Of a stretch of DNA of 64,000 bases, positions 1,985 to 59,291 are shown piece after piece (position 1 is the stretch's first letter; each line of letters starts with the position of its first letter). Made by a program: the position numbers and the translations under genes. The DNA lies in the IMG/VR virus record IMGVR_UViG_3300031760_000013, positions 2,458 through 66,457 of that record; one strand, 5' to 3'. The DNA is from a virus (Duplodnaviria > Heunggongvirae > Uroviricota > Caudoviricetes). The notes below the pieces were generated by a model. That model was not told the origin of the DNA, did not search any database, and worked only from the letters and a program-made list of their open reading frames with translations.

Positions 1985-2177
1985 TCAATTCCCTTTCAAA
2001 TTCCTGCATTGCATAATTCTCAAATTTTTCTGAGTTTTTGTATTTGGTTGCCTGTTTTAGTCCACAGAATGGGCAGTAATCAAATAGTTGCTGCCCACAT
2101 TCCGTGTCCCAATAAGCTTCGTGATGACAACGGGAACATTCCCAAAAGTCATGATGCTTCGGATTCGTTCGCCACAT
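1977..2177 (-). CDS. small zinc-ribbon protein
   Basis: 66 aa with four Cys/His in a C..C..H...C..C arrangement. Confidence 0.35.
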   Translation of the reverse strand: MWRTNPKHHDFWECSRCHHEAYWDTECGQQLFDYCPFCGLKQATKYKNSEKFENYAMQEFERELNG

Positions 2178-3417
2178 TATCTTTCAGCAGAATGTTGATG
2201 ATAACACCAAATACAAGCCCAAGTGCTGTTCCGCTAAGTGCAAATGTTGTACCACCGACAGCAAGCCCGCTGATGCCGAGCGAAAGTACACTTGAAACCA
2301 TGATCAGATTCTTCTGATTGTTTAGGTCGATCTTCTGCAGCATCTTAATACCGCTACATGCGATATAACCGTACAGGATAAGTGCAGCTCCAGCAAACAC
2401 ACAGCTCGGAATTGACGCTATAAATGCCTGAATCGGTCCGATAAATGCAAGCAGCATAAGCATTATCGCTGCGACATCAGTTACAATCGTGGATGCTACC
2501 CTAGAAAAACCAACACATGCTACACCTTCACCATAGCTACATATACCGAGGCCGCCGAGTACAGACCCAACGAGATTAGCGACACCCTCTCCGATGAAAA
2601 TCTTTCCGAGCCCAGGGTTTTCGTATAGATCTACGCCGATAATCCCGCTAAGTGCTGCATGGTCAGAAAGACTTTCCATCATAGCGCTTACTGTGTAAGC
2701 TATGTACATTATAATAACTGGCAGATAATTAATCGCAGGAGATTCTGTCCAGTGTGACAGCGCAAGATCTGGCCACGAGAAGAGCTTCATATTCTGGAAC
2801 ACACTGAAATCAATAATCTCACACACCCCAGTTAGTGTAAGGATGAGTGCAAACGCATACCCTGCTAGCGTACCAAGCAAGAACGGCAAGATTTTTGCTA
2901 AGCCTTTTGCGTAGTGGCTAATTAATGCGATTACTACCGTTGTGAACAGAGCAACTGCCACGCCATACATATTAGTTACACCATTAATCTGTACGTACGT
3001 TCCGATAAATCCCATTAGAGTTATACCGATTACCGCTGTTACTGCGCCGATCAGCGCCTTCGGGAACACCTTGTATATTTTATCGACTGCAATTTTGGTG
3101 AAGATCAGACCAAACAGGCAATACACAATACATGTTGTAAGGCCACCAACTGCTACAGCTTTATATCCGCCTGCGGCGAGAGCGAACATAACCGGCGCAA
3201 CGAAAGCGCCAGAGTTTGACAAGAACATTGGGGATTTATATCGTGTTATAAACAGGTACACAATTGTTGAAAAGCCCGCCCCAAACAGAGCACCACTTAC
3301 ATTTACACCACAAATATTTGCAATGAGAAGTGAGGCGACAAAAACTGCTAAAAGAATCTGTACGCCATACAGGAGAAGTTCTCCAAGCGGCGGTGTATCA
3401 TCGACTTTATAGATCAT
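2149..3417 (-). CDS. NCS2-family nucleobase permease (uracil/xanthine permease-like)
   Basis: 422 aa polytopic membrane protein. N-terminus PLGELLLYGVQILLAVFVASLLIANICG matches the uracil/xanthine permease start. Glycine-rich TM helices run throughout. Confidence 0.7.
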   Translation of the reverse strand: MIYKVDDTPPLGELLLYGVQILLAVFVASLLIANICGVNVSGALFGAGFSTIVYLFITRYKSPMFLSNSGAFVAPVMFALAAGGYKAVAVGGLTTCIVYCLFGLIFTKIAVDKIYKVFPKALIGAVTAVIGITLMGFIGTYVQINGVTNMYGVAVALFTTVVIALISHYAKGLAKILPFLLGTLAGYAFALILTLTGVCEIIDFSVFQNMKLFSWPDLALSHWTESPAINYLPVIIMYIAYTVSAMMESLSDHAALSGIIGVDLYENPGLGKIFIGEGVANLVGSVLGGLGICSYGEGVACVGFSRVASTIVTDVAAIMLMLLAFIGPIQAFIASIPSCVFAGAALILYGYIACSGIKMLQKIDLNNQKNLIMVSSVLSLGISGLAVGGTTFALSGTALGLVFGVIINILLKDNVANESEAS

Positions 3418-20207: not shown

Positions 20208-21431
20208 CTATTCTGATGCTTTGAAGTTATATATTGGTCTGATTACTGAATCAATGTGTACAGTGGGGCCAATATTATTTACGATATCATCAACTCGTTT
20301 GTACGCCATAGGAGATTCATCGAGTGTACTAAGATTCACGGATGTCGTGTATATCCCCTCCATAGCTTGTTCGAATTCCTCCAACGGAATAGTCTCTTTA
20401 GCTTTAGAACGGCTCATAATTCGCCCAGCACCATGCGGAGCTGAATAGTTCCAATCTGGGTTACCTTTCCCAGTGCAGATTAAAGACCCATCTCTCATAT
20501 TGATAGGAATGAGGAGCTTCTCACCTCCACGAGCAGAAACCGCGCCCTTTCTCAATATCATGTATTCTGTATCAATATAGTTATGAATGGTCTCAAATTC
20601 TTCAACTGGTATCCAGTTCATATATTTACAAATCGTATCAGCAATTGCCTTTCGATTTAGGTGAGCAAACTGCTGTGCGATTCGCATATCGTGGATATAA
20701 TCATCAAACAGTTTCCCTTCGCACCAAGCCAATTCTTTTGGTGCAGCCGGATAATCTTTCTTAAGCTTTTTCAGAGCATCAGATATTTCTGACTGTTTCC
20801 CTTGTACTTTTAATGTTTCAATTACTTCTTTTCTGGCATCTTCAGTCGGGCCAGAATGCGACTTAGCAGCGAGGCGCTGGTAATGTGTGCAGATATCGAC
20901 CCCTAGATGCCGGCTACCAGTGTGAATAACAAGGTACACGTCCCCAGTATCATCATTTTTATCTAATTCAATAAAGTGATTTCCTCCACCAAGAGATCCC
21001 AGTGAAAGATATGCCCGGACCAGATCCGCATTATTCTTACAAACAAGGTCTTCAAGCTTAATATTTTTTGTTAAAGGATGTTGTTGAGTACGTATGCTCA
21101 TCCCAGATGTGACAATTGGCTCTGTCTCGTTGTAACCATGAAGTGCAGTATCTAATCTTTCGAAATCCAAGACTGATCCTTTTGAAAGCTTTACAGTCAA
21201 CATCCCACAACCAATATCTACGCCAACCAGATTAGGGCATATTTTGTCTGAAATAGTCATGGTAGTTCCGATTGTGCACCCAGCGCCTGCATGTATATCA
21301 GGCATCATGCGTATGGTTTGATTATGCGCATATGGTTGATTTGCCAGTTGGATAACTTGAGAAATAGCTTCAGGTTCAACCACGTCTGTATATATTTTTG
21401 CATTAGCGTACTTCCCTACTACTTCAAACAT
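20208..21431 (-). CDS. rtcB: RtcB-family 3'-phosphate/5'-OH RNA ligase
   Basis: 407 aa. MPDIHAGAGCTIGTTM and GGGNHFIELD match the conserved RtcB metal-binding and His-rich motifs. Confidence 0.8.
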   Translation of the reverse strand: MFEVVGKYANAKIYTDVVEPEAISQVIQLANQPYAHNQTIRMMPDIHAGAGCTIGTTMTISDKICPNLVGVDIGCGMLTVKLSKGSVLDFERLDTALHGYNETEPIVTSGMSIRTQQHPLTKNIKLEDLVCKNNADLVRAYLSLGSLGGGNHFIELDKNDDTGDVYLVIHTGSRHLGVDICTHYQRLAAKSHSGPTEDARKEVIETLKVQGKQSEISDALKKLKKDYPAAPKELAWCEGKLFDDYIHDMRIAQQFAHLNRKAIADTICKYMNWIPVEEFETIHNYIDTEYMILRKGAVSARGGEKLLIPINMRDGSLICTGKGNPDWNYSAPHGAGRIMSRSKAKETIPLEEFEQAMEGIYTTSVNLSTLDESPMAYKRVDDIVNNIGPTVHIDSVIRPIYNFKASE

Positions 21432-23418: not shown

Positions 23419-24372
23419 TTATTCCATGTGTACAATTTTCCAACGTTCGTAATCTCTTTTAAAATCCTCAACAATTTGTCGTTTTTTGGAATCGATCGTG
23501 TTTCGACCAGAGCCAAGCTTATAAACTTTCCCGTCTATATACTCTGCGGCAGCATCTTCAAAACATGGCGCTTTACCCATTGCCTCAGAAATATAAGTCC
23601 TATAAAAAAGCCCGGACAGCCACACTCTGTAGTAACTTAACGATTGCAGTTCGCCCATTTCCTTGAACGCCATGCGTTTTCTCTTTGAAAACTCAACGCG
23701 AAAAGCCCTGATTGTTGGTATAGCTTTAACACCACTTAGTAGAAACGTCCTATCAAAACGCTGTACTACTATACGTTTTGAATAGTTTGGGTGTGCATAC
23801 ACAAAAGAATCAAGTGTCGATGCAGCGGAAAAGTCCGCAAAAGCCTCCTTATATATTCTGTATGATTTGTTGTCAAAACAAACAGCCATGTTTTTCAAGT
23901 CAACATCTGTGCGTCTGACTAATACCGTTTTTTCTTCTTTTACACCAGAGAATGCCAGCCAATAGTAACATCTGTATATACAATCCACAGTTTGCTCATC
24001 GGATGGCTTAAAGTAAAAATCTAAATATTTCTTCAGCTCTTCTGGGGTTGAGACAGTTAAGCGACGCATCTCGTCTGACATCTCATTGCTGTACATAATA
24101 CTTTCTGCGCATGTTTTTACACCAATATTCTTTTCGCACCAGCGGAGATAATCTTTCAGTGTGCTTAACACGCCCATTGTTGATCTAGACCTCAATGTGT
24201 AAGCACTATCCACCACCGCGCTCAGCTCCTGTTTGCTCATTTCGTAAAGGTCTCGTCCGGCTGCATCTTCATATTTCCCAAACGACTCAAACAAACGATT
24301 GAGATTCCTTGCGGTCATTTTGTTGTTTGTTTTCTGTTCGATATACCTACTCTTGAGTTGAATATTGTACAT
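23419..24372 (-). CDS. hypothetical protein, paralog of 50187..51137 (N-terminal region resembles a recombinase core-binding/SAM-like DNA-binding domain)
   Basis: 317 aa. Same length and parallel motifs as the 316-aa protein at 50187..51137 (LKDYLRWCEKNIG versus VNSYLKWCDRNRV). Strong AGGAGG RBS. Confidence 0.45.
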   Translation of the reverse strand: MYNIQLKSRYIEQKTNNKMTARNLNRLFESFGKYEDAAGRDLYEMSKQELSAVVDSAYTLRSRSTMGVLSTLKDYLRWCEKNIGVKTCAESIMYSNEMSDEMRRLTVSTPEELKKYLDFYFKPSDEQTVDCIYRCYYWLAFSGVKEEKTVLVRRTDVDLKNMAVCFDNKSYRIYKEAFADFSAASTLDSFVYAHPNYSKRIVVQRFDRTFLLSGVKAIPTIRAFRVEFSKRKRMAFKEMGELQSLSYYRVWLSGLFYRTYISEAMGKAPCFEDAAAEYIDGKVYKLGSGRNTIDSKKRQIVEDFKRDYERWKIVHME

Positions 24373-24399: not shown

Positions 24400-24834
24400 T
24401 CAAACAGTCGCCGAGTTAAGCGCACTTGCCTTCTTCCAGATAGAATACACGAGATGAGGCGGAATAAACGAGATCATAGATGTAGCCAGAATATAAGCCT
24501 CTGCAATATTTTTCATGTAGGAACTTGGCATTGTCGTAATATAACGTCCTAGCTTGTTTTTAGATATGCATTCTGGGTTCTCGCAAAGAACCATGCTGTC
24601 TTTCTTCAACCCGGAATCGCTGGCTTTTACAACAACATGCGTCGGTTGTGAAGACTTCTTGATCTGGCTTGTGAGCGGTAACACAATAACATTAGGACTA
24701 TGCAAATTCCCAAGGTTATTTTGGATTATCAGGCCAGGACGAATCCCGCTCTGTTCGCTGCCATTACCGGCAAATGTGATCATATAAACATCACCAATAC
24801 GCGGAGTGTGGCCGTCTTTGTTTTGGAAGTTCAC
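24400..24834 (-). CDS. MazF/PemK-family endoribonuclease toxin-like protein
   Basis: 144 aa. GDVYMITFAGNGSEQSGIRPGLII...NVIVLPLTSQ...PTHVVV reproduces the PemK/MazF fold motifs, including the conserved Arg (SEQSGIRP) and Thr (PLTSQ). No antitoxin-sized ORF is adjacent. Confidence 0.65.
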   Translation of the reverse strand: MNFQNKDGHTPRIGDVYMITFAGNGSEQSGIRPGLIIQNNLGNLHSPNVIVLPLTSQIKKSSQPTHVVVKASDSGLKKDSMVLCENPECISKNKLGRYITTMPSSYMKNIAEAYILATSMISFIPPHLVYSIWKKASALNSATV

Positions 24835-24938
24835 TTTTTGTACTCCTTTTATTAATATTATGTATGTTTCTTCTACTATTGTACAAATCGTGAACTGTGC
24901 TTATATTTTAGTACAAATAATTTGTTAGTGCAACTGTG

Positions 24939-26078
24939 TTAAGCGATCCCCATTAGATTTTTCGCTTGTTCAGCGATGCAATGATACGCTGTTGTTATAT
25001 CCCCGATAGTATTATTAGCAGAGACAGATACACGGATTGTGTTTCTCGCATCGTCGCCAGAGACCCCAATCGCTGTAAGGACATGGCTTGGCGTAGAGCT
25101 GCGTGAGTTACATGCGCTACCTGCTGATATTTGAACTTTATCACCAATGGCGAGAATAAGTGTTTGCGCGTCAACATTTGGAATTGTTACGCTGATAATC
25201 TTCTCTCCGTAATCAAAGCAATTAAATATAGCAGATGGTAGCTCTGTTGCGAGCCCTTCCTTGAAAGCCCTGCGCAGAGACGATACTCTAACTCGCGCCT
25301 CACTTAATCTTTCCGCTGTTAATTTACATGCTTCGCCAAATCCTACTATGCCAGCGACATTTTCTGTCCCACCTCTATACCCAAACTCTTGATAAGCACC
25401 GCCGAAAATTATTGGTGAAAGCACCTGTTTCCTTTTAGCGAAAATAGCCCCAACACCTTTCGGGCCATTAATTTTATGGGAAGAAATCGTAGCGAAATCA
25501 CATCCAATTTGTGTCATGTTCAAATCGACGACACCAGCCGCCTGAACACAGTCTGTATGAAACAATACATCATGGTGCCTGCATACGTTACTGATATCAA
25601 CGACCGGGTTTTTTACCCCCGTCTCGTTGTTCATGTACATAACGGAGACTAAGCCAGTACCATTATTAATACCGTTTTCGATTTCTTCCCTTTGAATAAT
25701 GCAGTTCTTGTCTGGGCTCGCTAAATCAGCGGTGAAGCCTTCAAATAACATTAAATTTTTTATTGAGTTAAGGACAGAATCATGTTCAATTTTTGTAGAT
25801 AGTATATGGGTTTTGCCAGAAATCTTCAAATAATGTTTCAACCCATTAAATACAAGGCTATTGCCCTCGCTCCCACCAGATGTAAAGATTATCTGGCTTC
25901 TGTCGCAATGAAGTAAATCAGCTACATTTTGCCTCGCTTCATTAATGGCATCTCTTGCGAAAATTCCTGCTGAATAAATTGAACCTGGGTTTGCGAAATT
26001 ATCTTTTAAAAACGGGAGCATCGCTTCAAACACACGTTCATCCATCTGTGTAGTAGAAGCATTGTCAAGATAAATCAT
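24939..26078 (-). CDS. cysteine desulfurase (class V aminotransferase; NifS/IscS-like)
   Basis: 379 aa. N-terminus MIYLDNASTTQMDERVFEAM. PLP-lysine context ISSHKINGPKG. Active-site cysteine loop SAGSACNS. Confidence 0.8.
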   Translation of the reverse strand: MIYLDNASTTQMDERVFEAMLPFLKDNFANPGSIYSAGIFARDAINEARQNVADLLHCDRSQIIFTSGGSEGNSLVFNGLKHYLKISGKTHILSTKIEHDSVLNSIKNLMLFEGFTADLASPDKNCIIQREEIENGINNGTGLVSVMYMNNETGVKNPVVDISNVCRHHDVLFHTDCVQAAGVVDLNMTQIGCDFATISSHKINGPKGVGAIFAKRKQVLSPIIFGGAYQEFGYRGGTENVAGIVGFGEACKLTAERLSEARVRVSSLRRAFKEGLATELPSAIFNCFDYGEKIISVTIPNVDAQTLILAIGDKVQISAGSACNSRSSTPSHVLTAIGVSGDDARNTIRVSVSANNTIGDITTAYHCIAEQAKNLMGIA

Positions 26079-28097: not shown

Positions 28098-28221
28098 ATA
28101 GATTTACAGCGAAGACACACCGTAATATGTCTTCGCATTATAAACACTGCATCAGTCTTTCAGCGACGCCGCTAATTTCCGGCCATCTTGAAAATCTATT
28201 TTTTCATTGTTTTTATAAAAT

Positions 28222-29482: not shown

Positions 29483-30355
29483 TTAAAACAGCAAGCTTGC
29501 GGTGCTATCCCATTTCGTGTAGAGGTGGCAATTCGGTCTGAGAATTAAATATTTCAGGTCAGATTTCGGTACCGTCGACATACAGTCGTCGTCAAGCACT
29601 GTGGAAATCCCGTCCACATCATATCTCGTCTGCCCGAATTCCAGGACTTCAAGGGCTCGCCCATTATTTTTGATGTATTCTCTTATCGAATCAATCAAAT
29701 TGTCCGCCGCTGTATGGTTTGCTATCCACTTTGCTTGTTCACTCTCGCCACTAGCATACAGAATTCTAAACGTAATCGCATCGGCCTTCATCATCTTTGC
29801 GTAGATGAAAAATTCCTGCGGTGTATCGATCATGTAATCCCACGCATCCGTTAGATTTACAGAAAGCCGAAGATTCATACCGACATTCTTAATTGTGTGG
29901 CACAGTTCCATGATGTTTATCGGCGCACCCTTATGGCCTGTATATACTGCGTTCGTCTCGTCATCTGGAGCACTTATCGATAAGCTTACTGACGTTACTC
30001 CAACCTGATCTCTAAGGAAAACCAAGTAAGCTTCGTCAAGAAAACACCCTGCTGTCTGGATTGAAACCCATCTAAACGGCTGCTCAAGTGAACGGTTCAT
30101 GTCTCCAAACGTAGCAAGGAAGGCCTTGTTCTGTGTCGGCTCGGCGTCGCCAGTCAGCATCACAGTATTGCAGTGGTTGTCTCTCGCAAATGCCATACGT
30201 TTCCGGTACTCTTGGAGTGCGAGAGAATATGCTGGGTTCGAAACGGCAATTTTATTTTTACCGTATTCTTCATGATGCTGTTTGCTTACACAAAAAGCAC
30301 AGTTATTTACACACTTTTCAGTTGGTACAACTATCGAAAGTGATTGAATATTCAC
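29483..30355 (-). CDS. radical SAM domain protein (subfamily unassigned)
   Basis: 290 aa. CVNNCAFC (CxxxCxxC) at residues 15-22 and MLTGDAEP (GGEP-like) further on. Confidence 0.6.
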   Translation of the reverse strand: MNIQSLSIVVPTEKCVNNCAFCVSKQHHEEYGKNKIAVSNPAYSLALQEYRKRMAFARDNHCNTVMLTGDAEPTQNKAFLATFGDMNRSLEQPFRWVSIQTAGCFLDEAYLVFLRDQVGVTSVSLSISAPDDETNAVYTGHKGAPINIMELCHTIKNVGMNLRLSVNLTDAWDYMIDTPQEFFIYAKMMKADAITFRILYASGESEQAKWIANHTAADNLIDSIREYIKNNGRALEVLEFGQTRYDVDGISTVLDDDCMSTVPKSDLKYLILRPNCHLYTKWDSTASLLF

Positions 30356-34599: not shown

Positions 34600-34710
34600 A
34601 TTGTTCTCCCTTTTTATCAAACCGTTACTTCCACTTACAGCAAGAAGCAGTTGAATTTATGTAAACCATTTCAACTAATCTACATCATAAGGCAGTGCAA
34701 AAATATTCAT

Positions 34711-36300: not shown

Positions 36301-36810
36301 TTTGCATCACTCCCTAATTAAAAATCGAAAGCCTTCTGTACAGAGTAGAAGCTAATTTGAAGTTCATTGTTTAAATATAATAGACGGTCAAAAGACCTTA
36401 TGAGTTTAATAATATCAATAAAGAATCACTTTATTTTAGGCTAGCAAGCCGCAGAAATTATTCATTTATTGCCTGTTGTTGACGATTGATGCCTAATGAA
36501 TATTGAATACTGAATATCGTATGACGAATTATGTGTCGTGGCTGTCGAAATGCGTGACGCATCTTCTAGGGTGGAATTTTCAAAATCCCAGAATTTTCAT
36601 TATGTATTCAATGTCAACTTTTGCTATATATCATGGCAAAAAGTAAGCAAATAATTAAGTTTTTGCAATAAATTGCAAACTGATAGTTGACGTACTACCA
36701 AACGTAAACAATAAACAATCTCCTTAATTTCTACTCTGTACAGAGGGCTTTCGCCCTCCGTGTCTGAACAACAACAATGCCTTTATGTAATAGGGTCGTG
36801 TGATACCCTG

Positions 36811-38308: not shown

Positions 38309-38798
38309 TTATATTTCCTTTCATTCCATGTAGTCTATATATGGTATTTGTATGAGCCCGACGACGTCGATCGTTTAGCAGGACATCCTCCGACCGGCTT
38401 GGATGAACTGTTTGGTCAGAGCTTAAGACTCAAGGAAGGCTGTTTTAATTGTGTGATTTGCGTGTGTGGTGGCTAGTGTACTGATAAAATGCCTAACTTT
38501 GAATTTTAATTTGTCTGCCGGTGAGGCTTCCTCGAAACGTTCCAGCGGTATCCGGACGCCCGCGGCGCTCCCGGGACGGCGTCGTGTCCCGCTCAAATCG
38601 TTACTTCCGCTTACAGCAAGAAGCTGTTTCATAAGAAACAAATTGCACTACATGTTTATATTTTTTAGGGGGAAGTTGGCTCATGCACTACCGTCGTAGC
38701 ATTGGAACCAATACCATTACAGCAATATGAGGGAGGGCACATTGCTTTTTCTGGCGACAGCATCTCTGTCATTAAGCATGATTTGATCCTCACTTACG

Positions 38799-38874
38799 TG
38801 GTACCGCTGGATGGAGTTGAACCATCGTCTTTGGCTTATAAGGCCACTGCTTCTAACCATTGAGCTACAGCGGC
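38799..38874 (-). tRNA. tRNA (anticodon loop CUUAUAA, so anticodon UAU, Ile-type), CCA encoded
   Basis: Minus-strand sequence GCCGCUGUAGCUCAAUGGUUAGAAGCAGUGGCCUUAUAAGCCAAAGACGAUGGUUCAACUCCAUCCAGCGGUACCA folds as a cloverleaf: a 7-bp acceptor stem with one G-U, a GG D-loop, T-arm GAUGG/UUCAACU/CCAUC and 3' CCA. The D-stem has one irregularity. Confidence 0.55.
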
Positions 38875-40974: not shown

Positions 40975-42129
40975 CTATCCAGCAAGATCCTCTTTAATCA
41001 GTTTCTTGATGCTCCCGCAACCAAGCTTCTCACCAAGATAACCAACCAGCTCGTCAATTTTTCTGCCTTCAACCATCTTGTAATAATTATAGAGCCCGTT
41101 CATAACTTGGATATCCTCCAAATCCCACGGATTCCCGTTCTGCCTATCTTTCACATAGTTTGTGAGCATCGCCTGAAATCTGCGCTTAGTTTTATGCCCA
41201 ATAGTTATTTCGTTCTGCCCGTTAAGACAGCATCCAAGCAGAAAGTTATGTCCAGAAGAAGAACCGTACCTTGTCTTTGCGGTATTGAGCTGGAACGGCG
41301 CATTAAATGTTGCAAGTGAGCTGATAATTTCCTGCTCGATTTTTCTGAAGTCGAAATCATACCGAGACGAAATGATAAAGTCATCGGCATATCTCGTATA
41401 CACGAAGCGCTGCTTATCGAAATCCCTGAGTTCCTTCGATAGCTTATAGTCGATTGGAATCATCATGATGTTGGTTATCAGCGGAGAGATCGGAGTGCCC
41501 TGCGGAAGCCCGCCATTCAGAATTGCTAACTCAAGAGCAGATTCCAAAGCACTTCTTCCTCTTTCGGTCTTAACCACTTCAGAAAACGGGTATACCATAG
41601 AGAACATCTGCATGATAAATTCCAGAGTTGTGCTACCAAAGAAGTCATGCAGGTCATATTTACAAAACCACTTGCTCTCATTTGACTGATGACGCTTCAC
41701 CGCATCAAGCGTAGACCGTTTCTTGATATACGCAAAAGCCGATGTGTGATACAGCGCCTTACAATCATTCTCAAAAATACCTTTCAGTGTTCTAAGTGCG
41801 CTCATCAAGTCGTCTTCCGGCGCATTAATCTCACGAAGGCCGCCAGATTTTTTAGGAATATAAAACTTATAGTATGATTCCTGCCTTGGCTTAGATTTAA
41901 TTCTAGCCACTACATCTGATGTGTTAAAAGCTTCGAGCTTGAGGATGATGCGTCCAATGCTTATACCAAGTTTTCTTTCTACCCTATCAGACACATACTC
42001 CATTTCATAAGTACGTGTGTTTGTAAGATTCTCATTGATTACGCCTGGCGTAGTCGATGTCTGGAAGAGAAACTCCTCCAAAGTCATCTGGTGATACGTC
42101 GGCGGCATCTTGACAACGACATATACCAT
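40975..42129 (-). CDS. reverse transcriptase (retron-type, no maturase/endonuclease domains)
   Basis: 384 aa. RT motifs YIPKKSGGLREI (motifs 1-2), LPQGTPISPLITNIMM (motif 4, QGxxxSP) and YTRYADDFII (motif 5, YADD). GGGAGG RBS. Confidence 0.85.
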   Translation of the reverse strand: MVYVVVKMPPTYHQMTLEEFLFQTSTTPGVINENLTNTRTYEMEYVSDRVERKLGISIGRIILKLEAFNTSDVVARIKSKPRQESYYKFYIPKKSGGLREINAPEDDLMSALRTLKGIFENDCKALYHTSAFAYIKKRSTLDAVKRHQSNESKWFCKYDLHDFFGSTTLEFIMQMFSMVYPFSEVVKTERGRSALESALELAILNGGLPQGTPISPLITNIMMIPIDYKLSKELRDFDKQRFVYTRYADDFIISSRYDFDFRKIEQEIISSLATFNAPFQLNTAKTRYGSSSGHNFLLGCCLNGQNEITIGHKTKRRFQAMLTNYVKDRQNGNPWDLEDIQVMNGLYNYYKMVEGRKIDELVGYLGEKLGCGSIKKLIKEDLAG

Positions 42130-42497: not shown

Positions 42498-42752
42498 TTA
42501 TTCGTTTTCCAAAATCTCAAGCAGATGTTTCCCGTGATCGGTGATTTTCATATGCTTGAGCATAGATTCGCAGTGCTCGCTCTTGAAGAATTCTTTGATT
42601 TCCTTTTTGGAATAACCCCATTCATCGCGAGTTATCCGCGAATCCTTTCCCCTATTGCAAAGGTCGCGGTAATCGTCAGCTGCCTTCTGCAAAATTGCCA
42701 TGGCAAGCTGAGCTGCACCGCGACCCCGCAACACCTCTAACGATTCTGGCAT
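42498..42752 (-). CDS. hypothetical protein
   Basis: 84 aa; between the E1-like gene and the RT leader. Confidence 0.35.
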   Translation of the reverse strand: MPESLEVLRGRGAAQLAMAILQKAADDYRDLCNRGKDSRITRDEWGYSKKEIKEFFKSEHCESMLKHMKITDHGKHLLEILENE

Positions 42753-43423
42753 CAGAATACGTCCAGAATCCCACTAAAGCCATCGATCTGGCCGAACTTC
42801 CAAATACCTTCACCCTTAACAAACTTTATGTAATTGTTCACACACATCGCACAGATGAGGCGGACAGTTGTCACAACTCCGAGTGTAATTCCGCACGCGC
42901 TCACTGGAGTCTCGTTTTTTGCCTCTTCGTGTGAAAACTGCATAGAGTTCAGAAGGTTCTGGCGTGACTGGTAATCACTCCAGTCTGCCCCATACATCTG
43001 CGCTCCCGTTAGAGCCGTTCTCACGTCGAACACCGCTTTTAAGAAAGGGTGATCCATGTGCTGCTCAACAAATTTCCTGCGCAGTTCTATATTGTCCGGG
43101 CAAAGGAACACATACCCCGATAGCATTTTCCCCTGCCACCCTTCCGGTTTGATCTTGATCGAATCTTTTGCTTCCGGATTAATTTCCAGAATAAGATCCC
43201 GCAGCGCCTCGACCTTAAGCCTTCCGATATCCTGCTGTCTGAACATCTGGTTCACGATGTTGTGCTTTTCGACCTTGTCGAAATCATAAAGCGTCATCTT
43301 TGTAATGCCGCACCGAGCAAGATTTTCCGCGATTGTCGAGCCGACTGACCCGCAGCCGATTATATGAATCATCGCGTCATCTTTTTCCGGCTGGAAGAAT
43401 TCATAGCTTTTACTGAGATCCAT
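42752..43423 (-). CDS. ThiF/MoeB-family E1-like adenylyltransferase (minimal adenylation domain)
   Basis: 223 aa. HIIGCGSVGSTIAENLARCGITKMTLYDFDKVEKHNIVNQMF reproduces the E1 Rossmann GxGxxG plus the D.D.VE..N(L)xRQ nucleotide-binding signature. Confidence 0.6.
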   Translation of the reverse strand: MDLSKSYEFFQPEKDDAMIHIIGCGSVGSTIAENLARCGITKMTLYDFDKVEKHNIVNQMFRQQDIGRLKVEALRDLILEINPEAKDSIKIKPEGWQGKMLSGYVFLCPDNIELRRKFVEQHMDHPFLKAVFDVRTALTGAQMYGADWSDYQSRQNLLNSMQFSHEEAKNETPVSACGITLGVVTTVRLICAMCVNNYIKFVKGEGIWKFGQIDGFSGILDVF

Positions 43424-49942: not shown

Positions 49943-50200
49943 ATGATATTGTTATTTAAAGACCAGACTTATTTAGCAATCACATCAACCAAGTGGATTA
50001 ATAAAGAAGAGGCTGACATAATCAGCCTCAACGATTTACAGAAATCCAAAGAATTCCACGGGAAATCAGTGGAGTCTGCCGGTATTTGTTTTTACGATTC
50101 CAGTTATTATCTCGTTGTGGAATTTACAAAAACCCTCGAGATTCATAAATGGTGCGGTAATTGCATCGTGAAAACCATTTGGAGAATTATTCCAGATTGA
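49943..50200 (+). CDS. hypothetical protein
   Basis: 85 aa plus-strand ORF with AAGGAG RBS; isolated plus-strand gene in a minus-strand block. Confidence 0.35.
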   Translation: MILLFKDQTYLAITSTKWINKEEADIISLNDLQKSKEFHGKSVESAGICFYDSSYYLVVEFTKTLEIHKWCGNCIVKTIWRIIPD

Positions 50201-51137
50201 AATAGCGTTTATAGGCGCGGTAAGACCACAAGGCTTTACCCGCCGTTTTTGTTCCTTTAAAAACCTCAGTAACTTTACTGGCGTTTTCTTTTGAAAATAC
50301 ATCGAATCCCGCCTGTTCTAATAAGAACAGAGCGTGGAGCCTACCAGATTCCCACACGTTTTTAAAGACAAGCCTATTAGGATTCCCAAGCTCCTGATAG
50401 GCTTCAGCGATTTTGTTTAATGCTGAATTCAATTGCGTTGGTGTATAAGATTCCCCGAACCTGTCGGATTTTGGTGTTGCGAACTTCTTCAAAAACTGTT
50501 TGCAATTCGGGTCTTTTACCACGTTAAAAACCGCCGTCCGATTTTCTCTTTGAGCGATTTTGCAATCTGCATACTCCGTAAGGATTTTAGAAATTTCCGG
50601 AGAATACCATGATGCTATAACATTCCCGTCAACATCATATATTTTCTTGTTAGCAAGATCAACTTGAGAATCCAGCATATTAAATATACTGTTTTTCCCA
50701 ACACCAATCCACGCAAGCGCAAATATCGGTGGCTCTACATACCCGTTATCAATTTCCCGAACCTTTTTAATTTCTGTACACAGTGACGCCGGGTCTTTAA
50801 TGTAGATTTCCCCTGCTTTCGAGAATACATCTGAATTCGGATCAATTGCCGCGAGAATCCAATCTGTCACGTGATCAAAAACCCTATTTCTATCACACCA
50901 TTTCAGATATGAATTCACTATTGAACGGACCGTGTATATGGTTCCCAGAGATTGCATATCTAATTTCCCAGCAACAGATTCCGCTTCCGCTTTATCCATT
51001 TCCGCAATATCCTTACCAAAATCCCGTTCAAGCTCTTCTGTAATTCCAAAGATTTTGAACGCAGTATTCCTGTTGGATTTGGTTGCAATCATTTCCATGA
51101 TAAAGCTATCTTTAATTTCGGCATTATACATTTCCAA
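50187..51137 (-). CDS. hypothetical protein, paralog of 23419..24372
   Basis: 316 aa; shared length and motifs with 23419..24372. Confidence 0.45.
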   Translation of the reverse strand: MEMYNAEIKDSFIMEMIATKSNRNTAFKIFGITEELERDFGKDIAEMDKAEAESVAGKLDMQSLGTIYTVRSIVNSYLKWCDRNRVFDHVTDWILAAIDPNSDVFSKAGEIYIKDPASLCTEIKKVREIDNGYVEPPIFALAWIGVGKNSIFNMLDSQVDLANKKIYDVDGNVIASWYSPEISKILTEYADCKIAQRENRTAVFNVVKDPNCKQFLKKFATPKSDRFGESYTPTQLNSALNKIAEAYQELGNPNRLVFKNVWESGRLHALFLLEQAGFDVFSKENASKVTEVFKGTKTAGKALWSYRAYKRYFNLE

Positions 51138-53188: not shown

Positions 53189-55082
53189 TGTAGTATCCTC
53201 CCAAATTTAATATGTGGGTGCAGTACACCCCTACATATCTTACATCACTGCAGGACATGTAGCGACATACTGTCCTGGATACTCTGATTTATAGCGCTGT
53301 CTCCCCCATTACGCCCGTGCTATTCTCTCACGACCGCTGTACCGCTGTGCTCTCTATTGTGCTCCATAACGTTATTCATACTTACCATCCACCGGCAGTC
53401 TATCAGGGCAGATTGACACATGAGTCAAGAGCATGTTTTGTGGATATAGTATCCCCCTGGTTTACTGTTGTCTACTCACATAAGAACATTGTTTCACTAT
53501 TGCTGATGACAGCTCATTACTCCAATTGCAATTATGCTTTTGTCATGTCACGTATGCGCTATGGTTCGGCTATGCACTGTCACTACATTTTTCAATAGTA
53601 ACTACAGCTGTTACCCTACGCTTTTTCGGATATAGACTTTTCAAAGTGCTCCAATAGTGTTTTGGATATTTCACTATTGTCCATAGATATAGTACACCCA
53701 TTGCGTTTAGCGTTACTCTACCAGAGAGCTTGTGCGATACTACCAGAGTATCCTATCACGCTATGGTTTAAACTATATCGGTTTTTCAAGCTGCTGCACT
53801 CTTTCAAGTACATCTACAGTATAGCACATTTTGATTGACTTGTCAAGAGTTTTTTTAAGTTTTTACTTTTGCACTCTAAACAAAAGAATGTAGAATTGTT
53901 TTCACAAGCTAATGTGTTATCTTTCCGCATGTTGTCTTTTGCTTTTTGTGCGTTTGCCTATAGTATCCCCATATTTGCCGAAGCAATTTTTTTTGCTATC
54001 TCAATCCACCGTCCACGCGTATGATTATACTATTGGCATAAGTATAAACTTTTCAATGTGCTTTAGCTGTTTTGTGCTCTCTTTCGATTGCATATACACT
54101 ATAACACATTTTCTTGAGTTTGTCAATAGTGAATTTTGATGATTCACTATTTTTTTCTGCTATCTGTATTCACTTTTCAAAGTGCTACCAAAACGAACCG
54201 AAAGATTTTTGCGGCTGGCTTGTTTTGATGGTGCTATGATAGCACATCAAGTCGTATTTGTCAACAGTTTTTTTCAATTTTTTTGATCACATTTGTTATC
54301 TTTATTCTCACGTCTGTTAACTATTATCTCTCTCACATCTGTTAACTTTTTCTTTCGTCTGTTAACTTTTGCTTTCGATTGTGCATTATGTGATTTTGCA
54401 CAATGGGAAATGGGCGGTGGTTTTGGTTTTCTAATAGTGCCAGGACCGGAAGAGCCAGGTAGTTGCTTTTTCTCCCACACCAACCAAATCTCAAAACTCA
54501 ATCTCACACCACCCAAAATCACCAATCACTCCGCGCAACCAACATTATGCCATAATTTCGCCCATTTAGCAACAGAGGTTAAGCCAAAATATTTTCCAAA
54601 AACAGAAGGGTTGTCTCAACCGCTATCCTGTTTTATTCCTCAACCATGGGTGCATAACCTTTAAATACACTCCCCTTTCGGTATTGGAAAAATTTTCTTT
54701 CTATAGGGATTGACTTTGCCTTTGCCTATTTGGTATACTCAGATCAACCTAAATAAATTACTTGCAGACAGAGGGTTTGACCGCCTCTGTCTCTTGTGTT
54801 ATTGGAGAGAAAACCGGTACATCAAAGTTGCCAAAAAAGTTCCGAATTTTGAAGTGTCATTTTCCATTTTGTACACGGTCTGTGTACAAAACCATTCTGA
54901 CTACCCCAGTAATTACTGGGTTTCTGAGGCTAGCCTTAAAAGAATAAGGAGGGAAGAAAAAGTGAAACCATCAAAAAAGTTCTGAATTCAAAGATTCTTC
55001 ATGGTAGTGTTTACTCAACAGCATAGTAGACCCCGTGAAATCTGTGTACAAAAATTAATAAACGGAGGTTGATAACCGAAAG
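53189..55082. promoter_or_regulatory. about 1.9 kb AT-rich non-coding strand-switch region with iterons and direct repeats (candidate origin and divergent regulatory region)
   Basis: No long ORF with RBS. Genes diverge from here (minus strand to the left, plus strand to the right). Contains three roughly 30-nt direct repeats (53821-53850, 54090-54130, 54238-54268) and three copies of tctgttaact. Confidence 0.55.
54305..54372. repeat. three direct iteron-like repeats C(A/G)TCTGTTAACT(A/T)TT
   Basis: tctgttaact at 54313-54322, 54338-54347 and 54358-54367, with 25 and 20 nt spacing. Confidence 0.6.
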
Positions 55083-56330
55083 ATGACAAACGGGCAGGAA
55101 ACAAATAGAATAAAGCCGATACGAATCATCGATGCCTGTATGGGTAGAGGCAAGACTTCAGCTGCAATAACATATATGGAAGAGAACCGAGGTTCGAAGC
55201 GTTTCCTTTATATTACTCCATATCTTGATGAGACAGAGCGGATATGCGAAGCGTGCGACTTCGAACAGCCGGAGAGCGATCACAGGACAAAGCTTGCTGA
55301 CCTGAAGAGGCTACTTCATCTTGGAAAGAATATATCCTCTACACACGCGCTCTTCTACTTATTGGATGATGCTGCGCTTGATTTGATAAGAGAGAAAGAA
55401 TACAACCTGATACTTGATGAGAGTGTAGAGATGATCCGCAAGGAAAACATATCGCAGAAGGACTTCAACCTGCTGAAAGAGAAGTTCGTATCAGTTGATG
55501 ACGCTGGAAAAGTAATTTGGAGAGACGGCACGTATGAAGGAAGGTTCTCTGATTATATGGAGATGGCGATGTCAGGATCACTGTTTATCAGAGACGGAGC
55601 GTTGATGTATGTTATGCGGCCTGACTTCCTCCAGTCATTTAACGAGATTATAATGATGACATATATGTTTGACGGGCAATACCAGAAGGCGTATCTCAAC
55701 TTCTTTGGATTTGAGTATAAGATATGCGGTATTGATTCCAAGCAGAGAAGCAATGGAAGTATGGAATTCAAGTTCAGTGACCTACCGGATGTCCCGCCGA
55801 ATGTAGACTATCACGGTCTCATCCACATTATAGATGAAAAGAAGTTAAATGAGATTGGCGATGGTAGATACGCCTTGTCGAAAAGATGGTTCGAGCGACG
55901 TGCTGCTGACTCTGATGATATTAAACAGCTTAGGGCTAACATCCGTACATTCTTCCAGAGAAGATGTGGCGCTGCATCATCGGATATCATCTGGACATGT
56001 TTTAAAGGGCAGCATGAGAAGCTGATTGAGAAAGGGCGGTATAGGAATTCGTTTTTGTCATTGACGCTCAGGGCAACCAATAAGTATAAGGATAAACATG
56101 TGGTCGCCTATCTTGCAAATAGATTTGTAGATCCAAACATAGTGAAGTTCTTCGCCGAGAAAGGCGTGTATATAGATAATGACGCATATGCGCTTAGCGA
56201 GATGCTTCAGTTTATTTGGAGAAGCGCCATTCGTGACGGCAACCAGATAACTGTGTACATCCCGAGCAAGAGAATGCGAGACCTCCTTGTTAAGTGGATT
56301 GAAGAAAGGAACAATGGAGGTGAGAGCTGA
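55083..56330 (+). CDS. P-loop NTPase (Walker A/B ATPase), function unknown
   Basis: 415 aa. Walker A DACMGRGKTSAAI near the N-terminus and Walker-B-like LILDES about 90 aa later. First gene of the plus-strand block, directly upstream of the RNAP-like gene. Confidence 0.5.
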   Translation: MTNGQETNRIKPIRIIDACMGRGKTSAAITYMEENRGSKRFLYITPYLDETERICEACDFEQPESDHRTKLADLKRLLHLGKNISSTHALFYLLDDAALDLIREKEYNLILDESVEMIRKENISQKDFNLLKEKFVSVDDAGKVIWRDGTYEGRFSDYMEMAMSGSLFIRDGALMYVMRPDFLQSFNEIIMMTYMFDGQYQKAYLNFFGFEYKICGIDSKQRSNGSMEFKFSDLPDVPPNVDYHGLIHIIDEKKLNEIGDGRYALSKRWFERRAADSDDIKQLRANIRTFFQRRCGAASSDIIWTCFKGQHEKLIEKGRYRNSFLSLTLRATNKYKDKHVVAYLANRFVDPNIVKFFAEKGVYIDNDAYALSEMLQFIWRSAIRDGNQITVYIPSKRMRDLLVKWIEERNNGGES

Positions 56331-56497
56331 TGAAGAAGTCTGAGAACTGGTACGACTACTATGATAATGATATCAATATCGATAAATACATAGAGGCTTG
56401 CCGGAAGGAATATAGAGAGGCCTGGTTCAGTGTGTTTGGAAAAGATGAAGATCTTTATATCTCGGATTATGATGATTACTATGAAGAAATGGAATGA
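56330..56497 (+). CDS. small acidic Tyr/Asp-rich protein
   Basis: 55 aa (MKKSENWYDYYDNDINIDKY...DYDDYYEEME); ATG overlaps the upstream stop (TGATG); below the 60-aa track cut-off. Confidence 0.35.
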   Translation: MKKSENWYDYYDNDINIDKYIEACRKEYREAWFSVFGKDEDLYISDYDDYYEEME

Positions 56498-56690
56498 ATT
56501 TTGCCATATCAACCTAATTAACTTATTTACTTCGTTAATAAACTGTATTTCCATGAGGTGATTTTTTATAAGCAAACAAATAGAACTGCAAAGGTATGTA
56601 TTTAAGATTCACAGCTCGAGGCTGCGTAAGAGTAACTGGAAGCTGACGCTCACTCTGGCTGACGCGCGAAAAAATGAAGAGCTGATATCG

Positions 56691-59291
56691 ATGGGCTCAT
56701 CACAGATCCTTAGATGGATTGACGAGCTGAATGGCATCACTGATGCAGACCAGCGAGCGAGGGACATCCGAGCTGAGATTCAGAGACTACGCAAAGATGC
56801 AAACAGTTCGATTACCAGGCGAGAGATTCGAAGGTTGTATTCGCAGCTCGACTCAATCCAGTTCAAACCTGATTATATGTGCCTTGTGATAGATCGCGAA
56901 AAGGATTACCGGCGTGCATGCAAAGGTTTCTCAATAAATGGTATAAGCTACTCACGCCTTCTTGGTACTGCTGGTGGAATCAAGAACAGCACGATTGTCT
57001 TTGTAAGCGACCGCTATCACGATGAACTTGTCAGGCGTGTAGATAACGGTAGAGATATGTCGCAGGAAATAGTGCCAGCGAAACTGGAGGCTTACAAAGC
57101 TTTGGCGTGCAGCGCGTCCATACCGGTATCTATGCCAAAAGGGATACTTGTAGTACATGACGTTGAAACTACATTCACGGCTGACACAGTCTATCTGGAT
57201 GACGAGAATGATGGCGAGCCTGCAATGAAGTTTGTCCCGGACACAGAGATCACGATGGATGCTACGGACGGGTTCGGTTTAATGCTCCCCTCTCTTGCAG
57301 AACGGTGGAGTGAGGAGTTGCGGCTTGGATATACAATGTCAGGTTGTAACACAAGATTCTCGTTCGAAAAAGGTATGGTGTATGCGTTTGACTTCATAGA
57401 GTTCGCAGAGAATGTCGCGCACAAAAGTATTGTCAAGGATGTCTGGGGTAACGATGTAGATATCCACGAGGTGGAACTTATATTCACTGAGAGCATGCTT
57501 AAGCTCTGGAATGCTTATAAGAGTTGCGACGATTATCTTGAGAACTGTATGGAGAATGGGTACACAATCGGTATACCGAAAACATGTCCAGAGAAACTTG
57601 AGAAGACGAGAACGCTAAACTACCAGTTTATCCAGAGTTATCACTTAGACGACGATGATATTAACGAGCTGATAGCTCCAACTATAAATGAGATTGAAGA
57701 GGTACTGAAGGATGATTGGCGAAAGACAGTGTTGTTTTTACGCGGGGCTGGGTTAAATGAGAGCAATGTCGACTATATTGATAATGGTTTTATCAAAGCA
57801 ATGATGATAGACAGTAGAATTGCTGACGACCCATATGTAAAAAACGCTGTGTATCAGCTGATAAAGAACAGAATCAATGAAGCAAAGATTGGGGTGTTGA
57901 ATGTACACGGGAACTACTCAATGATATCTGGTGACCCGTATACATTGTGTCAAGGAATATTTGGCCTGCCTGTCACAGGTTTATTGAAGGCTGGCGAAAT
58001 ATATAATAAGTTTTGGGTGGATTCTGCTGCAGAGAAGCTTGTTTGTTTCCGAGCTCCTATGAGTACCCACGAAAATATACGTGTGGTAAAAATAAATAGA
58101 GGTGACGATGCGCGGCACTGGTACCAGTATATGCAGACATGTACAGTGCTAAATTCTTGGGACACCATAACAATGGCACTTAACGGCGCGGATTACGATG
58201 GTGACCTTGTCATGCTTTCCGATAACGACGTACTAATCCGAAAGCATCGCGACCTCCCGACCATTATGTGTGTGCAAAGGAAAGCAAAGAAGATGGTCCC
58301 GACAGAACAGGATATTATAAACTCTAACATTGCAAGCTTTGGGAACGAGATCGGGCAAGTAACGAATCGTACGACATCAATGTATGAGGTGCAATCGCAT
58401 TTTGAACCAGACAGCGATGAGTATAGGACATTGAGCTATAGGATTATGTGCGGGCAACTCATTCAACAGAATGTTATTGATAAAACAAAAGGTATTGTTG
58501 CAAAGCCAATGCCAAAGACATGGTATGACAGACATTCTGTAAATCTGATCAGCGACGACGACGAAAGACGTTTTTACAGAAGGATTGTTGCAGACAGGAA
58601 GCCGGCGTTCATGCGGTATATATATCCAGAGCTTATGCGGCAATATAACACATACATAACGAACACGAATAAGAATTCGCTCCGTGAGTTCCAACTGACA
58701 ATTGACGAATTGAAGAGCATCCCATACGATGACCTTACAAGCAGACAGCTCGAGTTTCTACGGTACTATGATATGTATATGCCTGTTGGTACAGGCGATT
58801 GCGTTATGAATACTATTTGCAGGAAGGTCGAACAGAAGTTTGATGGATTTGTTGGCGCTGCATCAAAGAACTCCGAGTTTGATTATACGATTATGAAGAG
58901 CGGCACAAGTTATTTGCAGTGGCAGTATTATGCGATAGAGCGATTGCTCGATGATTATAATAAGAGACTACGCGACTACTCTATATTTTCAATGTATGAG
59001 CGAGAAGATAAGGCAGATAAAATTGATTCTATAAAAGTGATGAATGCACAGTTTGCCCGTGACTGTATGGACATATGCACGAATAGTAAACAGATGTGTG
59101 ACATTTTACTTGATCTTTGTTATAAGAAATCGAAAACGAAAAAATTTGTCTGGGATATATGCGGAGACCAGATAATAGAGAATCTGTTGGAAAAGAATAA
59201 CTGGATTATATCGTATCCGGAGTTAGATGAAAATGGTGAGTTGGCATATGGCGGAGAGCATTTCTCCATGCGAGAAAAGAAGGAGGTCTGA
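56691..59291 (+). CDS. YonO-like single-subunit two-barrel RNA polymerase (putative)
   Basis: 866 aa. Contains ALNGADYDGDLVML. DYDGD is the DxDGD metal-binding loop of double-psi beta-barrel RNA polymerases (compare NADFDGD of the multisubunit beta-prime subunit; shared by YonO of SPbeta and the eukaryotic RNAi polymerases). Confidence 0.55.
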   Translation: MGSSQILRWIDELNGITDADQRARDIRAEIQRLRKDANSSITRREIRRLYSQLDSIQFKPDYMCLVIDREKDYRRACKGFSINGISYSRLLGTAGGIKNSTIVFVSDRYHDELVRRVDNGRDMSQEIVPAKLEAYKALACSASIPVSMPKGILVVHDVETTFTADTVYLDDENDGEPAMKFVPDTEITMDATDGFGLMLPSLAERWSEELRLGYTMSGCNTRFSFEKGMVYAFDFIEFAENVAHKSIVKDVWGNDVDIHEVELIFTESMLKLWNAYKSCDDYLENCMENGYTIGIPKTCPEKLEKTRTLNYQFIQSYHLDDDDINELIAPTINEIEEVLKDDWRKTVLFLRGAGLNESNVDYIDNGFIKAMMIDSRIADDPYVKNAVYQLIKNRINEAKIGVLNVHGNYSMISGDPYTLCQGIFGLPVTGLLKAGEIYNKFWVDSAAEKLVCFRAPMSTHENIRVVKINRGDDARHWYQYMQTCTVLNSWDTITMALNGADYDGDLVMLSDNDVLIRKHRDLPTIMCVQRKAKKMVPTEQDIINSNIASFGNEIGQVTNRTTSMYEVQSHFEPDSDEYRTLSYRIMCGQLIQQNVIDKTKGIVAKPMPKTWYDRHSVNLISDDDERRFYRRIVADRKPAFMRYIYPELMRQYNTYITNTNKNSLREFQLTIDELKSIPYDDLTSRQLEFLRYYDMYMPVGTGDCVMNTICRKVEQKFDGFVGAASKNSEFDYTIMKSGTSYLQWQYYAIERLLDDYNKRLRDYSIFSMYEREDKADKIDSIKVMNAQFARDCMDICTNSKQMCDILLDLCYKKSKTKKFVWDICGDQIIENLLEKNNWIISYPELDENGELAYGGEHFSMREKKEV

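Follow-up and report, generated by a model that had tools for sequence, protein, structure and literature searches.

What does a MazF-type toxin do in a phage that carries no recognizable MazE? We addressed this question for a mazF-like gene encoding 144 aa (24400..24834, minus strand) in a 64,000-nt stretch of phage DNA, hereafter the window (positions 2,458 to 66,457 of IMG/VR record IMGVR_UViG_3300031760_000013). A preliminary description of this DNA had presented the gene as a solo endoribonuclease gene with a direct-repeat operator. We found instead that it is one half of a strictly conserved two-gene cassette, in which mazF is followed by a gene for an integrase-fold protein of the MrpR/YopR/SroF type, and that the cassette resides in an SPbeta-like phage.

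Profile, fold and catalytic residues all place the window protein in the MazF/PemK family. Residues 14-113 matched the Pfam domain PemK_toxin (PF02452) with E=1.5e-23 and 83.5 bits against a cut-off of 23.1, PHROG 1936 (phrog_1936, "MazF-like growth inhibitor") was matched with E=3e-30, and PDB matches spanning the entire MazF structures of B. subtilis (4mdx, 1ne8, 4me7), B. anthracis and S. aureus were obtained with E values from 4e-21 to 8e-19 (~4e-20 for B. subtilis). In a residue-wise alignment to 4mdx/4hke, residues 13-123 (24466..24798, minus) correspond to full-length B. subtilis MazF (BsMazF, or EndoA), and the window protein extends beyond its ends by 12 residues at the N-terminus and 21 residues at the C-terminus. 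Arg32 (codon 24741..24739, minus) and Thr55 (codon 24672..24670, minus) align with Arg25 and Thr48 of BsMazF, for which a catalytic role was reported by Simanshu et al. (2013; cited in PMC10769878). Both residues and 31 other positions were invariant in an alignment of 51 relatives with 56-72% identity (alignment A1), and most positions of the EndoA RNA-groove segment were likewise invariant among these relatives. The AlphaFold2 (AF2) model of the window protein had a predicted local distance difference test score (pLDDT) of 86.8 and a predicted template-modelling score (pTM) of 0.81, and its comparison by Foldseek with RNA-bound BsMazF (4mdx_A) gave a root-mean-square deviation of 1.8 A over 113 columns and a target-normalised template-modelling score of 0.89. 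The catalytic Arg and Thr contexts named in the preliminary description were therefore confirmed, with no substitution of either residue in a proper alignment. Taken together, these comparisons indicate that the EndoA-type nuclease is intact and evolves under strong purifying selection, and it would be expected to be catalytically competent as an endoribonuclease. The gene itself, defined from the list of open reading frames (ORFs) and the sequence, has its stop codon at 24400..24402 and a GTG start codon at 24834..24832 on the minus strand, and no further in-frame start codon was found upstream. The ribosome-binding site AAAGGAG (24849..24843) lies eight nt 5′ of the GTG, in agreement with the good site that had been claimed.

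Directly downstream on the same strand is a gene encoding 317 aa (23419..24372, minus), which starts 27 nt past the mazF stop codon and has its own AGGAGG ribosome-binding site. Its product matched the Pfam domain MrpR_N_CB (PF22822; E=1.3e-13, 51.8 bits against a cut-off of 27). When an AF2 model made with 39 homologues (pLDDT 88.3) was searched against the PDB with Foldseek, the top six matches were YopR/MrpR (8bj6, 8bpz, 8a0a) and phi3T SroF (9rd5, 9rgl), with E values from 2e-7 to 3e-6, and Tn1549 integrase, XerD and Cre ranked below them. The box-I (Arg-I) catalytic position was occupied by K, R, D, A, E, N, Y or Q in an alignment of the MrpR-like family (alignment A3). This variability fits the non-catalytic, repressor-type members of the integrase fold that have been described (PMC10516654), and the 317-aa protein is probably a non-catalytic DNA-binding protein of this fold.

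We assessed the association of the two genes in a sample made up of 10 loci from exact-protein look-ups and 77 loci from IMG/VR. An MrpR-like gene was located directly downstream of a mazF bearing the C-terminal tail described below in 78 of 78 loci (53 of 53 after dereplication). Locus L074 seems at first to be an exception, but carries two MrpR-like genes in tandem, with 11 nt between mazF and the nearer one. The gap between mazF and its neighbor was computed at 0-31 nt in most loci, and six negative values are likely artefacts of start-codon calling. Across loci, identity to the window proteins was 50-64% for MazF and 24-40% for the MrpR-like neighbor. In a search from the MrpR-like side, MazF was found directly upstream in 74 of 80 loci, the exceptions including loci in which mazF is deleted with its promoter kept (L090-92), interrupted by a stop codon (L097) or, in a distant relative (L165), absent. 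Thus, the tailed MazF was never seen without the MrpR-like gene, while the MrpR-like gene was sometimes seen without MazF. Shorter (121-152 aa) and more distant phage MazFs in IMG/VR had no tail motif, no MrpR-like neighbor and no upstream MazE. In the literature searched we found no description of the tailed subfamily, nor of its being obligately paired, in SPbeta-like gut phages, with a gene of the MrpR/SroF type. With respect to the flanks of mazF, the claim that neither side has an ORF of at least 60 aa did not hold, as there is a 379-aa gene 104 nt upstream and the 317-aa gene 27 nt downstream; what stands is that no adjacent ORF of antitoxin size encodes an antitoxin-type domain.

The window phage has a second MrpR_N_CB paralog of 316 aa (50187..51137, minus), 22% identical to the MazF-adjacent copy and with its own strong promoter (TTGACA-17-TAAAAT). 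Just upstream of this paralog there is a 16-mer with a palindromic core, GGGATTTTGAAAATTC (51184-51199), of which an exact copy occurs at 36574-36589 and a copy with two mismatches at 50120-50135. All of the copies are intergenic, and six matches with up to three mismatches were found versus 1.4 expected. GGGATTTTGAAAATTC is a candidate SPBRE-like operator and the second paralog a candidate maintenance repressor. A window-wide repeat search found no repeated SPBRE-like operator near the MazF-adjacent copy.

The region upstream of mazF is a gap of 104 nt (24835..24938, minus) that separates it from the 379-aa gene, which encodes a class-V aminotransferase (cysteine-desulfurase-like, NifS-like; 24939..26078, minus). 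Within this gap we found a weak sigma-70-like promoter, with a -35 hexamer TGTACA at 24880..24885, a 17-nt spacer and a -10 hexamer CATAAT at 24857..24862 (minus), that matches 9 of 12 consensus positions; here as elsewhere, promoter calls are consensus matches only. When the loci were aligned at the mazF start, nearly all relatives had TTGACA or TTGACT, 17 nt and TATAAT or TATACT, often with an extended TG, between mazF and an upstream gene that we call U. The window promoter occupies the matching position and is a degenerate version of this strong sigmaA-type promoter. The order of genes is promoter, mazF, mrpR/sroF-like gene, and then ERF, PD-(D/E)XK nuclease, DnaB, DnaG and PolIII-alpha, all on one strand; in the window, RtcB follows ERF and NrdD follows PolIII-alpha. 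No terminator was detected between mazF and the recombination and replication genes. Because a sigmaA-type promoter lies just upstream and no terminator precedes the replication genes, mazF is predicted to be the promoter-proximal gene of an early operon. Among 30 diverse loci, ERF was a conserved neighbor of mazF in 27 and the NifS-like gene in 23.

Two further features of the upstream region deserve mention. The octamer GTACAAAT occurs twice in the gap, at 24881-24888 and 24911-24918 (plus strand), and this direct repeat had been described as operator-like. The gap and the two copies are as reported, whereas the operator is not supported. The window contains four copies of GTACAAAT versus 2.6 expected, and when the AT-rich 104-nt region is shuffled, 32% of the shuffled versions contain some repeated 8-mer, as do 11% of all 104-nt windows. 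One of the two copies overlaps the -35-like hexamer of the weak promoter, and the window-wide repeat search found no repeat family touching the region upstream of mazF. We therefore rejected this chance-level repeat as evidence for an operator. Separately, the leaders of many relatives contain a hairpin (CCGTAAG...TTACGG) directly 5′ of a GAAAGGA ribosome-binding site (e.g., L024, L028, L039, L050, L053, L055 and L065). Its consensus has five base pairs, two of them with compensatory changes, and it is absent from the shorter leader of the window.

The C-terminal tail of MazF (residues 124-144; 24403..24465, minus) is specific to this family and runs past the end of every solved MazF. Its motif, ISF(I/L)DPxxLxSxWxKAxxLN, is conserved; in the alignment of 51 sequences W133, A136 and L139 were at least 90% conserved and N140 was invariant. 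Residues 126-141 are modelled as an amphipathic helix (AF2, pLDDT ~88), and no structure covering the tail was found among solved MazFs or viral MazFs in BFVD. In an exhaustive profile search, E values below 1e-30 were obtained for at least 63 protein clusters at the 50% level. Since most of these matches run through profile position ~140, we consider the tail to be retained in most clusters (~40-50 at the 50% level). More distant members of the family have a similar amphipathic extension, and a few of these lack the catalytic Arg. In P0309, P0331, P0342 and P0366 this residue is replaced by F, H or K, and in one of them the Thr is replaced too. Another variation was seen in P0300 and P0311, in which two to four MazF domains are arranged in tandem within one polypeptide of up to 471 aa.

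The search for a MazE-type gene covered the surroundings of mazF, the rest of the 64-kb window and 20 kb of phage DNA flanking it, 84 kb in all of a genome of ~113-120 kb, and found none. A hidden Markov model (HMM) of EndoAI/MazE, built from 30 sequences with a query verified against PDB 4me7, gave no match better than E=0.9 on the six frames of the window and the 20-kb flanks. A regular-expression search of the window found no small ORF with the M-x3-Y-x-E-M helix motif that is characteristic of MazE and of the phage MazF inhibitors AimX and YosL. A Pfam scan of the 76 small ORFs of the window and of seven mid-size ORFs found no antitoxin domain of the ribbon-helix-helix (RHH), AbrB, Phd/YefM or XRE type, and the 104-nt gap contained no plausible small ORF, in-frame or otherwise. 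The absence of an adjacent MazE-type antitoxin, as noted in the preliminary description, was thus borne out, including for a short MazE-like ORF immediately upstream, and the gene does not form part of a canonical mazEF operon, in which a small antitoxin gene is located upstream and co-transcribed. The suggestion that the antitoxin might be an RNA fared less well, and we rejected a type III antitoxin, as neither tandem repeats nor Rfam matches were found near mazF, although a novel RNA might act in this way. A known defence system was also rejected, there being no PADLOC match for MazF, the MrpR-like protein or U.

Gene U was the most conspicuous candidate for an antitoxin in the relatives. 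It encodes ~105 aa and immediately precedes mazF in 46 of the 51 informative loci (e.g., L003 4415-5892 and L090 2379-2795), often divergent from a gene for a LexA-like repressor with HTH_3 and Peptidase_S24 domains. We found no relatives of U in Pfam, PHROGs, PADLOC, NCBIfam or the PDB, and none in the window or its flanks by HMM. The window phage and the L007 group have an intact MazF but no U, and L090 has kept U despite the deletion of mazF. Because it can be missing where MazF is intact and can persist where MazF is gone, we do not regard U as an obligatory antitoxin. Its position opposite the LexA-like gene invites the guess that it is an SOS-controlled antirepressor-like factor.

The phage is SPbeta-like and has a genome of ~113-120 kb. 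The window contains, within 55083..59291 (plus), a YonV_C-domain protein and a YonO-type RNA polymerase of the RNA-dependent RNA polymerase (RdRP) fold (866 aa; 56691..59291, plus; PF05183 RdRP), and these are followed beyond the window end (L253) by genes of the YonG_N, YonD_N, YonB and YomX_N families. The contig flanks bring together YonV_C, YonG_N, YonD_N, YonB and YomX_N families, which represent a Yon*/Yom* virion module, and a third integrase, in addition to two integrase-family proteins in the window. A temperate lifestyle is suggested by the integrase genes, the LexA-like repressors of relatives and the occurrence of some relatives on contigs of 272-294 kb, which suggests that these are integrated prophages. 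Relatives were found in metagenome-assembled genomes labelled Ruminococcus, Roseburia, Neglectibacter, Oscillospiraceae and Clostridia, and our host assignments rest on these labels. DNA comparison with deposited phages found no close relative, and a tblastn search turned up none for the MrpR-like protein; GenBank phage records contain no relative of this protein or of the 22-28 kb region.

In Bacillus phages phi3T and SPbeta, the activity of the host MazF promotes lysogeny; the phage proteins AimX and YosL block host MazF, while phi3T_93/SroB, which shares an operon with the repressor SroF, releases it (PMC10769878; bioRxiv 10.1101/2023.04.27.537455; bioRxiv 10.1101/2025.11.27.690993). Because the cassette is conserved and host MazF has this published role in phi3T/SPbeta, we infer that the window gene encodes a repressor-coupled nuclease of the phage's own. 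Our preferred reading, to which we assign a probability of roughly 40%, is that the phage expresses MazF early, as an RNase acting jointly with the repressor encoded next to it, and that SPbeta-like phages of gut Clostridia have adopted MazF for their own programme rather than as half of a classical mazEF addiction pair. Upon infection or induction, host RNA polymerase would co-transcribe mazF and the integrase-fold repressor gene. MazF would then cut host and phage mRNAs, leading to shut-off at the RNA level, and the repressor would act on DNA, so that nuclease and repressor together might time the early programme or tilt the infection towards lysogeny. The cassette would in this way be the phage-encoded counterpart of the liberation of host MazF that Bacillus SPbeta/phi3T bring about through the operon encoding SroF. 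Toxicity may be limited by a short, repressible pulse of expression, and possibly by the C-terminal helix, rather than by MazE.

Several observations weigh against an early-expressed RNase coupled to its neighbor. The window's own promoter is weak (9/12), and MazF is dispensable, being deleted (L090-92) or interrupted (L097) in some relatives. The loss of the catalytic Arg in distant tailed relatives hints that part of the function of the family may not need cleavage. If the specificity were like that of BsMazF, one might look for cleavage sites to be rare in the transcripts of the cassette, and UACAU was not depleted in the mazF-mrpR operon (64 sites observed versus 69 expected in 30 loci) or avoided on phage coding strands (85 versus 76.5). 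We therefore rejected the idea that the repressor operon is spared from cleavage, insofar as BsMazF-like specificity can be assumed. No other 5- or 6-mer was strongly avoided, and transcripts of SPbeta/phi3T have been reported to be enriched in UACAU (bioRxiv 10.1101/2023.04.27.537455). In addition, the second MrpR paralog is the more maintenance-repressor-like of the two, and the MazF-adjacent copy may have another role.

A more specific proposal is that MazF is an integral part of an SPbeta-type lysis-lysogeny switch. MazF and the repressor would then constitute a module for shut-off at both the RNA and the DNA level that serves to establish lysogeny and replaces the hijacking of host MazEF, with the C-terminal helix acting as an on/off handle through the repressor-like protein, gene U or another factor. 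We put this forward only tentatively.

Among the alternatives to an early phage RNase acting with a repressor, the one that survives best, while still unlikely in our view, is that the two genes form a type II toxin-antitoxin pair of a non-canonical kind, with the gene order reversed and the 317-aa protein as the antitoxin. This protein would bind MazF, perhaps through the C-terminal helix of the latter, and repress the operon with MazF as co-repressor. The asymmetric co-occurrence described above is what such a pair might produce, given that MazF was never seen without the MrpR-like gene (53/53) and that the reverse was seen (L090-92, L165 and the broken L097). Gene U, which would be the competing candidate, is lacking both in the window phage and in the L007 group, MazF-family toxins pair with antitoxins of various DNA-binding folds (PMC3879964), and the conserved tail implies a conserved binding partner. 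However, we found no precedent in the literature searched for an integrase-fold antitoxin of ~317 aa, and MazF and its tail (50-64% identity) have diverged far more slowly than the proposed partner (24-40%). The separate ribosome-binding sites, the spacing of 9-31 nt between the genes and their place in a long early operon also differ from what would be expected of a self-contained two-gene unit.

It seems less probable still that MazF is an ordinary toxin whose antitoxin is encoded elsewhere, whether in the other ~30 kb of the phage that lie outside the DNA we examined, as a host MazE, or as a small protein or RNA without detectable homology, and that mazF serves in prophage stabilisation or phage exclusion. 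The SPbeta/phi3T inhibitors of MazF provide a model for such an arrangement, as AimX (~50 aa) and YosL are encoded far from any toxin gene and are recognisable by a short helix only (PMC10769878), and there are many small ORFs of unassigned function around the mazF locus. Nevertheless, the HMM, helix-motif and Pfam searches described above returned no candidate (all EndoAI/MazE matches had E>0.9), and there were no tandem repeats, Rfam RNAs or PADLOC matches to suggest one. The location of mazF behind an early promoter together with replication genes is also unlike that of a moron-like, separately transcribed island.

Self-inhibition, in which the C-terminal helix would serve as a built-in antitoxin by folding into the dimer's RNA groove until displaced by a trigger such as another phage or a phage or host protein, strikes us as improbable. 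The tail is family-specific and conserved, and it is predicted to form a helix packed on the domain (pLDDT ~88, pTM 0.81). When compared by eye, the tail and the MazE helix GYMEMAKINLN, for which we verified the MazE sequence, have hydrophobic, aromatic and Asn residues at similar spacings. Fused toxin-antitoxin proteins exist in other families, as exemplified by CapRel SJ46. This likeness did not withstand profile comparison, however: hhalign of the tail against an EndoAI/MazE alignment, built from the verified EndoAI sequence, gave a probability of 0.1, and a PDB profile search with the tail found no MazE. We therefore rejected the tail as a MazE-derived helix, and these comparisons found no homology of the extension to the neutralising segment of an antitoxin, as would be expected in a fused, single-chain toxin-antitoxin. 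Moreover, the residues M, Y, E and M through which MazE, AimX and YosL make contact (PMC10769878) correspond to L, W, K and A in the tail.

Finally, RtcB is indeed co-encoded with MazF (20208..21431, minus), 3 kb downstream on the same strand. The preliminary description had suggested that it reseals the breaks made by MazF, and this is chemically possible, as the 2′,3′-cyclic phosphate and 5′-OH ends of MazF products are RtcB substrates. Programmed cutting of tRNA, rRNA or mRNA by MazF with religation by the phage RtcB is nonetheless very improbable, even with RNA-repair genes near mazF in relatives (an RNA ligase with Metallophos; RlaP with a CCA-adding enzyme), because just one of 30 diverse loci, that of the window phage, has RtcB within 6 kb of mazF, the invariant partner of mazF is a repressor-like gene rather than a ligase, and RNA-repair modules are common in large phages, where they counter host anticodon nucleases. 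We accordingly rejected a coupling of MazF to RtcB.

Other features of the window were recorded in the course of the analysis. A retron-type reverse transcriptase is encoded at 40975..42129 (minus; PADLOC RT_II-A, E=6.5e-46). A family of 22-50-nt repeats, ACTTCCGCTTACAGCAAGAAGC, occurs in four intergenic regions (34600-34649, 38576-38625, 39070-39091 and 42399-42448), one copy being just upstream of the reverse transcriptase gene. The sole tRNA, which is also the sole Rfam match in the window, is a tRNA-Ile with anticodon TAT (38799..38874, minus). At the strand switch there is a gene-poor region of 1.9 kb (53189..55082) that contains three TATAGACTTTTCAAAGTGCT-like repeats (53631, 54043 and 54167) and three tandem-ish copies of a TCTCACGTCTGTTAAC-like motif (54302-54370), and which may be a control or origin region. 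An imperfect inverted repeat of 110 nt, 73% complementary, connects two intergenic segments that are 32 kb apart (28112-28221 and 60069-60178). The Firmicute LexA box core GAAC-N4-GTTC is present at 16138, 16313, 21861 and 55184 (four copies versus 0.74 expected), one of which is intergenic and upstream of the PD-(D/E)XK nuclease gene. Lastly, four auxiliary genes that are unusual in a phage, all on the minus strand (2149..3417, 24939..26078, 29483..30355 and 42752..43423), encode a nucleobase permease (Xan_ur_permease), the NifS-like cysteine desulfurase, a radical-SAM protein and a ThiF-family protein, and could together make up a thiolation or modification pathway.

The work on phi3T and SPbeta from 2023-2025 has shown host MazF to be built into the decision between killing and dormancy, which may or may not be a peculiarity of Bacillus. 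We found that a large and diverse family of SPbeta-like gut phages places its own intact MazF beside an SroF/MrpR-type repressor gene. If this link is functional, RNase-mediated control of lysogeny would be an ancient and general feature of the SPbeta-like phage group, and the cassette, with its two genes, would make a simple system for testing this. A functional link would also mean that MazF can be tolerated without MazE, through either a new kind of partner, of the integrase fold, or a new C-terminal regulatory helix, which bears on the domestication of toxins. If the link is not functional, the gene is one more uncharacterised phage "MazF-like growth inhibitor."

Compared with known systems, the window protein has the same fold as B. 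subtilis MazF/EndoA and is ~38% identical to it along the entire length of BsMazF. The two proteins also have in common the catalytic Arg and Thr and the conserved segments GSEQxGxRP and IQNNxGN, but the window protein differs in the 12 extra N-terminal residues and the conserved 21-residue C-terminal helix. Its genomic setting is also unlike that of B. subtilis mazEF (ndoAI-ndoA). There is no upstream gene for an RHH-type MazE/EndoAI, and mazF is instead phage-borne, located behind an early promoter and followed by the gene for an integrase-fold repressor.

A phage MazF without an antitoxin is not new in itself, and we found less reason than the preliminary description to call it unusual. Such proteins are catalogued in PHROG 1936 and in 91 GenBank phage records of MazF-like proteins, and three examples that we inspected had no annotated antitoxin. 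The MazF homologues of PHROG 1936, which include genes of Lactobacillus phage Semele, Psychrobacillus phage Perkons and gut NatCom phages, have no annotated antitoxin and are 37-48% identical to the window MazF; the examples examined in IMG/VR lack both the tail and the MrpR-like neighbor. We found no functional characterisation of phage MazFs of this type in the literature searched. T4 RegB is an early phage endoribonuclease with a toxin-like (RelE/YoeB-like) fold that has no antitoxin and inactivates early mRNAs. It belongs to an unrelated fold family, and its likeness to the window MazF is a functional analogy only, that of an early, toxin-fold, sequence-specific RNase reshaping the transcript pool.

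The closest parallels are found in the SPbeta group itself. The neighbor of mazF has in common with the repressors MrpR, YopR and SroF (8a0a, 8bj6, 9rd5) the MrpR_N_CB domain, the top structural matches and an unconserved first catalytic Arg, whereas sequence identity to them is 13-15% and the window phage has two such paralogs. As in the arbitrium-sro circuit of phi3T/SPbeta, an SPbeta-like phage genetically ties MazF activity to the operon of an SroF/MrpR-type repressor (PMC10769878; PMC10516654). No arbitrium genes were identified in the window and no mimic of MazE was found; and while the MazF of the phi3T/SPbeta circuit belongs to the host, the window phage encodes its own.

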